Below are positions 24,001 through 27,000 of a stretch of 64,000 nucleotides of DNA, piece after piece (positions within the stretch are counted from its first letter, which is position 1; each line of letters opens with the position of its first letter). The stretch lies in NCBI GenBank assembly GCA_951813565.1, contig OX638351.1, forward strand, positions 1,184,001 through 1,248,000. The letters run 5' to 3'. This DNA is from an uncultured Poribacteria bacterium. GTDB taxonomy: Bacteria; Poribacteria; WGA-4E; WGA-3G. The position numbers are program-made.

Positions 24001-27000
24001 TACCGACAGACTTATTCAAATCCTTCTCGAAGTGCCGGTCAAGTAAACCTCGCATCTTTCCACGTAAGGACGAACCGGGGATGTAGGGTTGTCGGTTGAA
24101 GGCGTTTCGTATGATTGGATTATCAATACCACCGATGTCTAATTCACCTGTGTTGCCACCGATGTGTAATCCTGTTAAGGCGTTGATTGCACCTTTTAGA
24201 AAAATTTTTCCGTGTAGTTGAATGCTTGGCATGTGTTCCTCCTTATTCTCCGCCGAATGCTCTATGATAGGCAAGAATTGCTTCAAAGAAATCGACAAAG
24301 TTTTTGAATTTCTCATTATTGTCAACTTGGTTTATGGCTTGTGTTAGCGCATCTTTTAGGTCTTCCACTTCTGGTTTGCGTGCTGCAGCATAAGCCAATT
24401 TTGGTTTTAACATGATCAATTCGTTTCGGTTAAACTCTTCACTCATTTGAATCTTTTTAACAGCCCCGTATACTTTTCGGATTTGGGATGTTTTGAGGTT
24501 TCTGGCGAGTTTACGTCCTAAATTTTCAGCTGCAGTGACGAGCGGTTCTCCGCCTTTCTCAATAACCTCTGAAATATCAACTTTTTGTTGGGCAACTATT
24601 TCCACTTCAACGTTACTTGCAGTAGGACCTTTTTGCCCTTGTGTAATCGTATATGAGGTGACTAACTGTCCTTCAACGAGCTCGTCAAATTGGATGTCTT
24701 TTAGTCCCGTGCGATGGAAGTGGACATCTTTACCTCCATCATCTGGTTGTATAAATCCGAAACCTTTTAGCAAGGTTTTAATTTTTCCTGTTGGCATCTG
24801 TGACTCCTTCTGTTTTCTGTGTTGTCGGGTTTCGCAAGCTTTACCCGACCTACGAATTTCTAATACGTAATGCTGTCCATCTGGTAATGACATGGATTAG
24901 TTCCTCTCTGAATTGAGAGGAATCTTCGTGGTTAAGTTCCTTTTTTAATTCATGTAGAAACGCTTTCTGTTCGTCATACTTGTCCCTCTCTTGCAATCGG
25001 TGGAAGTAGTAGAGTGAACGCCATGCCCACCGCTCTTCATCTTTATATATCTGGCTGAGACGGGTGAGTATGTCGCGCGGTAGTTGGTCTTGACCTATTA
25101 GGACCTCCATAAACTTTTCGTGCCATTCGCGCACTTTAGCGAACTCTTTCCACTTCATCGGTAGTTGTAAAAATGTGATGGCGTTTTTTTTGTCAAGACT
25201 TTTGGCAGCTTTCTCTGCATTGCCACTCCGTTCTGCAAACTGATAGAGCGGAAACTTCATGTGTTCAATGGCGATGCCACCTGAAAGCGTTACGTGGTCT
25301 CCAGTGACGAAATGACGAAATTCGGAGCGGATCTTTTGCGCGATTTCTGGCAATGCACTCCACCCTCCGACAAGGAACAGGTCATCACCGCCAGCATAGA
25401 TGAGTTCAAGTATCTGATCCTTCTTATTTTCATTCTGTCTTTTATTGTATTGATGACAGAGTTCTGGAACGTATCCTTCAAAAAAGAGTCGTAGTTCTCT
25501 GCTTAGGGTTGCATGACGTGAGATAGTTGCGTTTTTAAGTTTATATTTGAAGACGGTGCCGAGGTCATCAACGTCCATGCGGAGTGCGCCGAGCCAGTGA
25601 ACACCTTCTGATGCTTCAGCGAGATAGTTGTAATCTGCGATTTTTTCGGGATCATCAGTATCGTGTGGTCGTGCAATTACGGGTTTAAATATTCGGAAAT
25701 CGTAGCTAACAGAGATGTCATCCCACTGATATTTTTCTATATCCGCGAGAAAGCGTGTATCCCCGAGTTGGTAAACAACTGCATTGTCCGCTGGTGTTTC
25801 TGGTTTTTCATCTGCTTCTGCACATACATGAACATCTATACCGAATGCCTTGATCGCATGGTGCCATTTCGGCTTGTCAGGAATGGGTGATTCTGGCATA
25901 TCAAATGCCACGAGGGTTGTCGCATCCCGCAAATCCCTTCCGAGATCCTCAAAATCCCAATTAACCTCTCTATCTTCCTGTGGTTCAAAGAGGTTTTGAA
26001 ACATATCTTTCGCTTCCATCTCTGCCCATTTTTTCAGTTTCAATTTATTGACATTGTCTGATACCTCCCCCCACTTGTTATCGAATTTCTGTGTTGTAAA
26101 ATCGCTTATTTTCACATCGGCATAATCCAAAATGCAGTAAAGTTCATTTGTGTGAAGTTCCCATAATTTTTCAGATACCTGTTTTCGGATTTTGTTTAAC
26201 TCATTTTTTGTACTGCTATATGGTGCAAGGATATAGAAGTGTCCACCACTGGCGAGTAGTAAGTTTGTGATAGGTAGGTCAAACTGTTTTAGTACCCAGT
26301 GTGTGATTGCCTCTGTGAGCAGTTGTAGGTAGAAGGAACGTCCCCGCAGTTGGTTGGAAGCTCCATCGGATTGGATATGGTATAGAAAATTCTGGATGCC
26401 GGAGATGTCGCCTTTGATGAGGGCACATATTTTTTGGTCAGAATCATTTGGGTTGGCAAGTAGCGCGTCAACTTCGGTTTCGTCTGTGAGTTCGTGCCCG
26501 ATGCAGGCGGCGATTGCTGCGGTTGTGCGGAGATGGTCATAAAGTGATATGTCAGAATCCGGGTTATCTTCAGATTGTCCGGATGGTATGCGTGATGTGA
26601 ATTTGTGGAGTAGTGCCACAATCGTTTGATAGTGTGCTGGTTCGTAGGTTTTACCTTCTGTTGCTTTGCTGAATTCCTTTTTAAACTTCTTCCACAAATC
26701 TGCATAATCATTTTCATCTACCTCTACGGTTTCTTGCGGGATGACTGTGTCCCGTTCAAAATTGAGTTTTGTCAGTTTGTAGCGATGTTCTTTCTCAGCA
26801 CATTTGAGGCGTGACATAATAGAAGCAAGCGGGGATGCAACGAAGTCTTCTGTTTCTCGTTCCTCATCTTCGCGTTCGGATGCGGAGAGTCGGTCTGCCA
26901 ATATTACCTGTTTTTCTGTGAGATGTTGGAGTTGTGTCGGGTTGCGATGGTGATGATGTAGGATGGCGTTTTTGAAGGTGTCATCGCAAGTTGAGAAAAA

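Follow-up and report, generated by a model that had tools for sequence, protein, structure and literature searches.

A cold-shock domain fused to the type III-A CRISPR small subunit Csm2 in Candidatus Poribacteria

Introduction

The closest described relatives of the protein studied here are the canonical type III-A small subunits (Csm2/Cas11) of S. epidermidis, S. thermophilus and L. lactis (8do6, 6ifk/6nud, 6xn3). These proteins of 121–141 aa consist of a helical core without an OB domain, their genes stand between cas10 and csm3, and a conserved Arg of helix 2 (R49 in SeCsm2, R96 in ToCsm2), that of the TSQIRK motif in the canonical proteins, contacts the target RNA (PMC10289348). Csm complexes contain two or three copies of Csm2 (PMC8964682, PMC10289348). 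For L. lactis, PMC8964682 describes recovery of the whole complex through an N-terminal His tag on Csm2 and loss of Csm2 from the apo complex, and from these two observations we take the N terminus to be exposed and the Csm2 ridge to be weakly held.

The ligands of cold-shock domains (CSDs) include both RNA and ssDNA, and OB folds that resemble the CSD have been read as RNA binders where they are fused to other defence proteins (PMC11090510). In CoCoNuT CnuB/CnuC, the TOTE S1/CSD proteins and the retron Se72/type V CSD effector, such a domain belongs to an immune machine, either joined to it or encoded alongside, and is interpreted as its RNA-binding part (PMC11090510; 10.1101/2025.09.15.676423). 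None of these proteins is a CRISPR effector subunit, unlike the one described here.

We analyzed a window of 64,000 nt from the genome of a sponge-associated member of the Poribacteria, a single contig of 5.43 Mb, in which a CSD and Csm2 are encoded in one unbroken frame. What is new is a fusion confined to Poribacteria, an Arg-rich tail as its alternative, exchange of the two modules and purifying selection on the CSD. Our literature search, which covered material other than the supplements of CRISPR-classification and type III accessory-gene surveys, returned no report of a CSD–Csm2 fusion, in line with an earlier note on this DNA; the same search, aimed at the fusion, met no description of an Arg-rich Csm2 tail.

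Results

Genomic context and the CSD-csm2 gene

The locus reads cas6, cas8b1, cas7, cas5, cas3, followed by cas10, CSD-csm2, csm3, csm4, csm5, a CARF gene, cas4, cas1 and cas2, so that the csm operon does lie beside cas6, type I-B genes and cas4-cas1-cas2 as the earlier note had it. All of these genes are on the minus strand. The type I-B genes cas6 to cas3 (27856..34082), upstream of the csm operon, include the only cas6 of the locus. Cas10/Csm1 (24850..27132; TIGR02578, 558.7 bits) has HD and palm domains (PF01966, E 1.9e-10; PF22335; PF18211), with the HD and GGDD letters visible in the sequence. The genes csm3 (23402..24232; TIGR02582, 214.8 bits), csm4 (22338..23393; TIGR01903, 253.5 bits) and csm5 (21145..22317; TIGR01899, 160.4 bits) follow the small-subunit gene. 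The CARF gene named before is present and is more exactly a CARF-RelE ancillary effector (19981..21117; PF09651; PADLOC CARF7--CARF_RelE, E 3e-130), and cas4, cas1 (of the type I-B kind) and cas2 occupy 17567..19751. The CRISPR array comprises 48 identical 30-nt repeats (14128..17310, plus strand; repeat search with 0 chance matches expected), a count and an end that agree with the earlier description, although the array starts about 350 nt later than given there. Across the 47 Poribacteria loci that we fetched, csm2 stands directly before csm3 in every case and cas10 directly upstream in 46 (L133 is rearranged).

CSD-csm2 itself spans 24243..24797 on the minus strand and encodes 184 aa plus a stop, with a start codon and ribosome-binding site backed by 16 orthologous loci. 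The ribosome-binding site, GAAGGAG (24804..24810, minus strand), lies 6 nt before the ATG at 24797; AAGGAG occurs at the matching spot in relatives, and all 16 of their CSD-csm2 genes begin with MPTG or MSTG behind it. A 216-aa frame from an ATG at 24893 would overlap the 3′ end of cas10. We consider this start unsupported because of the uniform start in relatives and because the sequence upstream of the 184-aa start lacks conservation.

That an assembly or gene-calling artefact joined a csp gene to csm2 is next to inconceivable and counts as already refuted: nothing was found in its favor, the frame is uninterrupted in a single-contig genome, PF00313 and PF03750 occur together in 103 of the 120 best clusters of a protein search (53–100% identity, the window's own protein included; about 100 had been claimed) and in 18 genomes, some of which are also assembled into a single contig, and both DNA and RNA-library contigs bridge the junction. 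A contig of 4059 nt from a metatranscriptomic run, which may stem from contaminating DNA, spans 23318–25300 at ≈86% identity with no indel within the CSD-csm2 gene. Sequencing run X8 yielded one 162-nt contig at the cas10/csm2 junction and run X13 no contig extending beyond 24535, neither being informative on expression or absence.

The cold-shock domain and the Csm2 core

The protein comprises a CSD (residues 3–65; 24603..24791, minus strand; PF00313, AF2 model and Foldseek), a nine-residue linker without secondary structure (residues 66–74; 24576..24602, minus strand; residues 69–71 at pLDDT <50) and a Csm2/Cas11 helical core (residues 75–184; 24246..24575, minus strand; PF03750, TIGR01870, AF2 and Foldseek). 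Residues 3–64 match model positions 2–64 of 66 of PF00313 (E 1.6e-15, 57.2 bits against a cut-off of 27), and residues 84–183 match PF03750, Csm2_III-A (E 2.5e-30, 106 bits against 24.8). Both E-values are close to those reported before, and the 184-aa small subunit with a complete CSD before its Csm2 domain stands as described, with both domains above their Pfam cut-offs and both folds modelled.

The core also exceeds the TIGR01870 cut-off (68.8 bits against 30.6) and matches the PADLOC Csm2 profile (E 4.8e-32). It is all-helical, with helices between residues 75 and 180 at high pLDDT, and Foldseek aligns it with 6xn3_C, 9g9h_C, 6ifk_C and 6ae1_A at probability 1.00 and target TM scores of 0.56–0.66. 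T103, Q105 and R107 are invariant, R107 in 60 of 60 fused proteins. R107 has its aligned counterparts in the Arg of TSQIRK at chain position 36 of 6nud_A and the Arg of TNQVRK at chain position 97 of 6mur_B; we base its equivalence to R49/R96 on the motif because PDB chain numbering is offset from the published residue numbers. The Csm2 of Thermococcus onnurineus (6mur_B, 187 aa) is likewise long, its core beginning at about residue 87, but between its N-terminal extension, which we take to be helical, and the CSD of the Poribacteria query no match was obtained. The whole-protein AF2 model has a mean pLDDT of 90.9 and a pTM of 0.67, and two confidently predicted domains joined by a low-confidence linker at this pTM point to a mobile tether.

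Overall, the CSD is modelled as a five-stranded OB barrel (strands 4–9, 13–18, 25–28, 45–54 and 57–65) that superposes on CspC, CspA and CspE with target TM scores of 0.81–0.87 and an rmsd of 1.6–2.5 Å (Foldseek), and its structural matches include RNA-bound CSD entries. It shares this fold, the RNP1 motif KGFGFI and 38–48% identity with CspA, CspC, CspE and CspB, from which it differs in not being free-standing, in an altered RNP2 and in the loss of strand-1 aromatics. It also misses all NCBIfam Csp equivalog cut-offs (CspA/CspE/CspC/CspD), the best score being 56.9 bits against 120 (NF049933). The retron Se72-family CSD effector model NF038236 likewise scores below its cut-off (35 against 82 bits), and PADLOC CSD_V (E 5.4e-9) covers the CSD part only.

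KGFGFI and DVHFH had both been put forward as RNA-binding motifs. The first is an intact RNP1 at residues 11–16, and among 60 fused proteins G14 is kept in 60, F15 in 56 and F13 as Phe in 47 and Tyr in 10. The second is not a canonical RNP2: DVHFHR aligns ungapped with DVFVHF of CspA and DVFLHS of the genome's own paralogue, with H26 in place of the first Phe of the V-F-V-H-F consensus and a variable residue at its His position. In the same 60 proteins, position 26 is His in 55 and Tyr in 5, and F27 and F37 are invariant. Some alleles look decayed, with KSGGFI and a Ser in place of F37 (L116/P0104), with SGRI (L118/P0105) or, in P0098, with the CSD deleted in frame.

The genome encodes one other CSD protein, of 316 aa with a CSD and an Hfq-like end, which has the same MPTG-IK start as CSD-Csm2 and an aromatic pair (YY) in strand 1 where CSD-Csm2 has T8 and L9. 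Its identity to the fused CSD is only 43%; foreign Csps are closer, at 54–56%. The 316-aa protein is one candidate source of the fused CSD.

Distribution and the alternative N-terminal tail

We found the CSD–Csm2 fusion solely in Candidatus Poribacteria, where it occurs in 18 of 176 genomes, all of one family. In a scan of 1.84 billion representatives for independent fusions elsewhere, the best 150 matches contained only two full-length fused clusters and four fragments. A search for related loci returned mostly plain Csp genes, and the three fused loci among the matches listed are all titled Poribacteria.

Within the phylum, most of 31 csm2 genes that lack a CSD encode an N-terminal tail of 14–38 aa rich in Arg, Asn, Gln and Gly, with a net charge of +1 to +6 and predicted to be disordered (residues 1–3 and 5–23 at pLDDT <50). 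In these tailed proteins (e.g., P0108 and P0124) the core is ≈80% identical to that of CSD-Csm2, and the operon and the junction point, just before VIE-GG, are shared, but a disordered basic tail stands where the CSD form has a folded, slightly acidic OB domain (net charge of CSD plus linker −6 to +1). Eukaryotic Y-box proteins carry a CSD and an Arg-rich disordered region within one protein. Two RNA-binding modules of like kind would be alternatives in Poribacteria Csm2 and partners in the Y-box proteins, whose CSD–RNA entries (YBX1/YBX2) are among the fold matches of CSD-Csm2.

The earlier note had suspected that short csm2 forms are partly miscalled starts, which proved mostly wrong. Thirty of the 31 genes start at an ATG of their own that follows a strong AGGAGG or GGGAGG (L124 has an assigned alternative start), and the basic tail is conserved in most. 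Among the best 120 clusters, 17 have no CSD; 13 of these have an Arg-rich tail, one is the in-frame deletion P0098, and only P0085, P0110 and P0121 look truncated or miscalled.

Selection and module exchange

The CSD is under purifying selection. For a set of 16 genes, median dN/dS is 0.17 for the CSD, about twice the 0.09 of the core, and 0.41 for the linker (residues 66–77), with 91, 82 and 101 of 120 pairs usable for CSD, core and linker, respectively, and a median dS of ≈1.0.

In a tree of the Csm2 core, CSD and tail forms are interleaved, with 9–10 changes between them. Forcing the CSD forms into one clade costs 155.7 lnL (AU test, p-AU 4.5e-6), for a group that is defined by the trait and was chosen after the tree was seen and a core alignment of 111 columns. 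All four combinations of N-terminal module and core indel type are present, in 23, 95, 2 and 39 of 167 proteins. The AU test and this count reject the view that the CSD forms arose once and were inherited vertically; since one CSD clade is rejected and both modules occur on both core indel types, N-terminal modules have been exchanged between csm2 alleles. We saw no pattern of co-variation between N-terminal module and other genes in the 47 loci, a comparison made without a statistical test; the same CARF-RelE accompanies both forms of csm2.

Discussion

The gene product would be a working Csm2/Cas11 small subunit to whose N terminus a folded cold-shock OB domain is joined by a short, flexible tether. 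With Csm2 present in two or three copies, two or three CSDs would be displayed per complex, next to the ridge along the target RNA. There the domain may take single-stranded nucleic acid without sequence specificity, probably the transcript flanking the protospacer, and it may help the complex to catch, hold or unfold its target RNA, keep the weakly attached ridge in place, or both. In sister loci the Arg-rich tail would do an equivalent job, CSD and tail being alternative solutions that recombine between csm2 alleles. We regard a tethered, nonspecific binder of ssRNA or ssDNA, with a role in capturing the target or in stabilizing the loose Csm2 ridge, as having about an even chance of being right, and the data suggest that the N-terminal end of Csm2 bears an extra, swappable nucleic-acid grip. 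In its favor count the preserved RNP1, the fold matches to RNA-bound CSDs, the exposed N terminus of L. lactis Csm2 and the RNA-binding role given to similar folds in other defence systems; against it weigh the altered RNP2, the missing strand-1 aromatics, the acidic to neutral charge of CSD plus linker, the decayed alleles and a dN/dS above that of the core. The extra single-strand grip proposed in the earlier note rests on a real, conserved and selected fusion and gains indirect support from the basic tail at the same position and from module exchange, but the data do not tell RNA from non-template DNA.

A bolder form of this idea, which we advance tentatively, is that the Csm2 N terminus is a plug-in slot for generic ssRNA binders, with CSD and Arg-rich tail as interchangeable cassettes moving between Poribacteria csm2 alleles by recombination. 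The two or three RNA chaperone-like grips per complex would pre-bind and unfold transcripts, giving type III RNA sensing a higher on-rate and greater sensitivity. The pressure behind this might come from viral RNAs of the sponge holobiont that are structured or scarce.

Other roles have to be weighed. The CSD, like the basic tail, might serve assembly, holding Csm2 through the crRNA or a neighboring subunit or bringing in a partner from the host, for example RNA polymerase or an enzyme that degrades RNA. No subunit is held more weakly than Csm2 (PMC8964682), the tether of only about nine residues would keep the CSD near the ridge, and the surface of the domain is partly remodelled relative to free Csps. 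We nevertheless think this rather unlikely, for the RNP1 aromatics are conserved and a disordered Arg-rich tail, a poor stand-in for a specific protein adaptor, takes the place of the CSD in sister loci and has been exchanged with it.

A grip on ssDNA, the second option of the earlier note, in which the CSD would hold the non-template strand of the transcription bubble and present it to the Cas10 HD nuclease, fits the retained HD domain of this locus and the known binding of ssDNA by CSDs. Our data show no preference for DNA over RNA, however, and the copies of Csm2 are arrayed on the target RNA over the full length of the ridge, most of them away from the HD end (PMC8964682). Full-length cas10 also occurs in CSD and tail loci alike, so the N-terminal module does not track the HD domain, and we consider this role doubtful.

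It is improbable that the CSD does nothing important and is a nearly neutral addition carried along in the spread of a successful csm operon. The in-frame deletion and the alleles with degraded RNP1 would fit such a history, as would the many Csm2 proteins elsewhere without such a module (11 of 135 representatives, in crude classes, have no N-terminal extension at all). Against it stand the low dN/dS of the CSD at this dS, the core and surface residues that are unchanged among fused proteins down to 53% identity, and the occupation of the N-terminal slot in all Poribacteria loci that we examined, a few short tails apart.

Csm complexes for RNA detection or knock-down could be given the appendage by grafting if it proves to increase affinity or to unfold structured targets. 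Should the N terminus indeed be a plug-in slot, the cassette should transfer to laboratory Csm complexes, in which the Csm2 N terminus already tolerates a tag, as a means to improve RNA capture in type III diagnostics. CSD-Csm2 extends the recruitment of cold-shock domains by defence proteins to a CRISPR effector subunit. Capturing a transcript is the first step of type III CRISPR immunity, and no part of the complex is weaker or more mobile than the small-subunit ridge; a lineage that has repeatedly traded one putative nucleic-acid-binding appendage for another on Csm2 is a natural experiment on the limits of target capture.

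A cold-shock domain is fused to Csm2 within a type III-A operon

Translation of the minus-strand open reading frame from ATG 24797 to its end at 24243 yields a 184-aa product, with GAAGGAG located 6 nt 5′ of the start. An automatic gene call (P0002) uses an alternative 216-aa frame from ATG 24893 that runs into the 3′ end of cas10; we rejected this longer product because all 16 orthologous genomic genes start with MPTG or MSTG behind AAGGAG and the sequence further upstream is unconserved, making 184 aa the right length. Pfam places a cold-shock domain (CSD) at residues 3–64 (E = 1.6e-15, 57.2 bits; cut-off 27) and Csm2_III-A at residues 84–183 (E = 2.5e-30, 106 bits; cut-off 24.8), and this core is also matched by TIGR01870 (NCBIfam) and Csm2 (PADLOC). 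The CSD misses every NCBIfam Csp equivalog cut-off. With both Pfam domains, the open reading frame, and its neighbors recovered, the fusion inside a type III-A csm operon described in the earlier note stands. Every feature testable here places the protein in Csm2/Cas11, and profile and fold both show a CSD in it.

The minus-strand gene order is cas6, cas8b1, cas7, cas5, cas3, cas10 (HD, palm), CSD-csm2, csm3, csm4, csm5, a CARF-RelE effector, cas4, cas1, and cas2. A single cas6, adaptation module, and CRISPR array (14128–17310, 48 repeats) serve both the I-B and the III-A system at the locus. The ancillary effector (19981–21117, minus strand) matches CARF7--CARF_RelE in PADLOC (E = 3e-130) and is thus a CARF-RelE fusion rather than a HEPN Csm6; it is common to CSD loci and to sister loci with an Arg-rich N-terminal tail in place of the CSD, and other loci have different CARF genes or none there. 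Between the I-B cas3 and III-A cas10 lies a gap of ≈720 nt (27133–27855) with no 90-aa ORF listed for the operon strand. Cas2 and cas1 have between them a perfect tandem repeat of 69 nt in 2.4 copies (17970–18137), and in another genome (L110) a related-looking tandem repeat, with KQVGGNSDSRH repeated in open frame, fills the cas10–csm2 spacer. A 394-aa ORF without a Pfam match (12731–13915, minus strand) adjoins the array.

Predicted structure and binding face

The AlphaFold2 model, built from an alignment of 60 fused homologues, has a mean pLDDT of 90.9 and a pTM of 0.67. It contains five strands (4–9, 13–18, 25–28, 45–54, and 57–65), a nine-residue segment without secondary structure (66–74, of which 69–71 score under pLDDT 50), and helices between residues 75 and 180. 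Confidence that is high locally but moderate globally is what a short, mobile tether between two rigid domains would give. In Foldseek, the N-domain matches CspC, CspA, and CspE (target TM 0.81–0.87, rmsd 1.6–2.5 Å) as well as RNA-bound CSD entries, and the C-domain matches Csm2 chains of the L. lactis, E. italicus, and S. thermophilus Csm complexes. R107, invariant in 60 of 60 sequences, aligns with the TSQIRK/TNQVRK arginine of solved Csm2 proteins, a residue that one study reports as crucial to cleaving the target RNA (PMC10289348).

The earlier note had listed two RNA-binding motifs as present, of which one holds. RNP1 (KGFGFI) is kept across the 60 homologues, with G14 in 60, F15 in 56, and F13 as F or Y in 57. 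RNP2 (DVHFH) is non-canonical: DVFVHF of CspA (HMMER) and DVFLHS of the genome's own CSD paralogue (BLASTP) both align ungapped onto DVHFHR, so the first Phe corresponds to H26 (H in 55, Y in 5 of 60) and the buried Val to an invariant F27, the His position being variable. F37 is invariant where CspA has Tyr, and strand 1 carries T8 L9 versus YY in the paralogue; in free Csps, nucleic acid is contacted at these positions. The domain's profile and fold are those of a CSD, with a partly remodeled binding face.

The CSD alternates with a basic tail

Comparison with all 47 other Poribacteria loci that we fetched placed csm2 directly before csm3 in every one and cas10 immediately upstream in 46; the exception is the rearranged L133, where cas10 and csm4 match only weakly and lie downstream of csm5. 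Of the 31 non-CSD csm2 genes, 30 have an ATG start preceded by AGGAGG or GGGAGG, the start of the other (L124) being our assignment at an alternative codon. These genomic genes are not truncated calls; the earlier note had suspected miscalled starts among part of the short forms. Most encode an Arg/Asn/Gln/Gly-rich tail of 14–38 residues (net charge +1 to +6) whose junction with the core immediately precedes the VIE-GG motif; a few tails are short or only weakly basic (L128, L133, L146), and L149 is divergent. AlphaFold2 predicts such an Arg-rich tail to be unstructured (residues 1–3 and 5–23 below pLDDT 50, core above 90). Among 135 more distant Csm2 representatives, classed by a crude composition rule, 14 have a basic low-complexity tail, 16 a long helix-like extension, and 11 none. 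N-terminal extensions of 55–105 residues in the distant representatives P0158, P0161, P0177, P0178, P0240, P0243, P0257, and P0270 are rich in charged residues, coiled-coil-like, and without a significant Pfam domain; they are a third kind of appendage at this end of Csm2.

The full fusion occurs in 18 of 176 Candidatus Poribacteria genomes, the window's included; they belong to a single family, with 12 from the window's genus, 5 from another genus, and 1 from a third. Another 31 genomes match the Csm2 core only; 17 of them share that family, 13 belong to a second family, and 1 belongs to a third. Most others match through a housekeeping CSD protein only. Both domains are present in 103 of the best 120 clusters (90% identity clustering), and fused clusters among the best 150 of 1.84 billion representatives scanned comprise only two full-length clusters and four fragments. 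The window's genome has two CSDs in total; the other forms the N terminus of a 316-aa protein (contig C1, ≈3701317–3702267; L001:745–1695, minus strand) that toward its C terminus matches Hfq/Hfq_1 weakly, at scores below the cut-offs (22.4 and 19.4 bits). Most of the 176 genomes contain a frame of ≈310–345 aa that includes this CSD, and we found no free-standing Csp of ≈70 aa in the window's genome.

Possible roles of the appendage

According to two Csm studies, Csm2 copies form the helical ridge lining the target RNA, the interfaces of this ridge are the smallest in the complex, apo complexes lose Csm2, and the whole L. lactis complex was pulled down via an N-terminal His tag on Csm2 (PMC8964682, PMC10289348). 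The pull-down, together with the weakly held ridge, shows that the Csm2 N terminus is exposed and tolerates an appendage. Because of this and the alternation of CSD and basic tail, we give about an even chance to the appendage being a non-specific single-strand binder, which would touch the transcript beside the protospacer and aid target capture, retention, or unfolding, and/or keep the ridge in place.

A role of the CSD in assembly or recruitment is possible, if rather unlikely, and it is doubtful that the CSD grips ssDNA on behalf of the HD nuclease. We give little credence to a nearly neutral fusion. In pairwise comparisons of 16 fused genes, at dS near 1, dN/dS has a median of 0.17 in the CSD, 0.41 in the linker, and 0.09 in the core; the CSD is maintained, though less strictly than the core. 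Counter-examples are P0098, which lost most of its CSD by in-frame deletion; the L116/P0104 allele, with a degraded RNP1 (KSGGFI) and Ser for F37, in a locus where cas10 and csm2 lie ≈1.5 kb apart (L116, 9653–11215); and a divergent branch with SGRI (L118, P0105). A fourth is the degraded L113 locus: csm3 is deleted, and the CSD-csm2 frame (csm2 region 9086–9511) runs on for 408 aa into csm4, in its C-terminal two thirds.

An artefactual fusion is next to inconceivable. One 4059-nt contig (depth 91) of a metatranscriptomic run covers 23318–25300 at ≈86% identity and bridges cas10, the entire fused gene, and csm3, with all listed indels outside 24243–24797; as RNA libraries can contain DNA, it does no more than hint at transcription of the operon in a relative.

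For the added domain, the nearest precedents are CoCoNuT and TOTE, in which CSD-like OB folds are fused to defence proteins, and a retron CSD effector, to which our CSD gives weak matches (PMC11090510, 10.1101/2025.09.15.676423); unlike the fusion, none is a CRISPR effector subunit. Full-text searches, whose scope excludes subscription papers and classification-survey supplements, turned up no description of Cas11/Csm2 with a CSD attached.

Exchange of N-terminal modules

A core-only maximum-likelihood tree (quick search on 79 rows and 111 columns) intermingles the CSD forms and the tail forms; it requires 9–10 parsimony changes, at least three of them forced by well-supported branches. A single clade of the 30 CSD forms was rejected (155.7 log-likelihood units, p-AU 4.5e-6), on a short alignment with some long branches and a tree inspected before the test. 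Independently of the tree, each N-module is found with each core indel type: in 167 sequences, some duplicated between the protein and genome sets, the CSD accompanies a long core in 23 and a short core in 95, the Arg-rich tail a long core in 2 and a short core in 39, and the remaining 8 ("short/other") have a short core. Since the sequences of each module class are homologous to one another, recombination between csm2 alleles explains the CSD/tail pattern better than repeated invention. Module exchange is the part most useful to a specialist.
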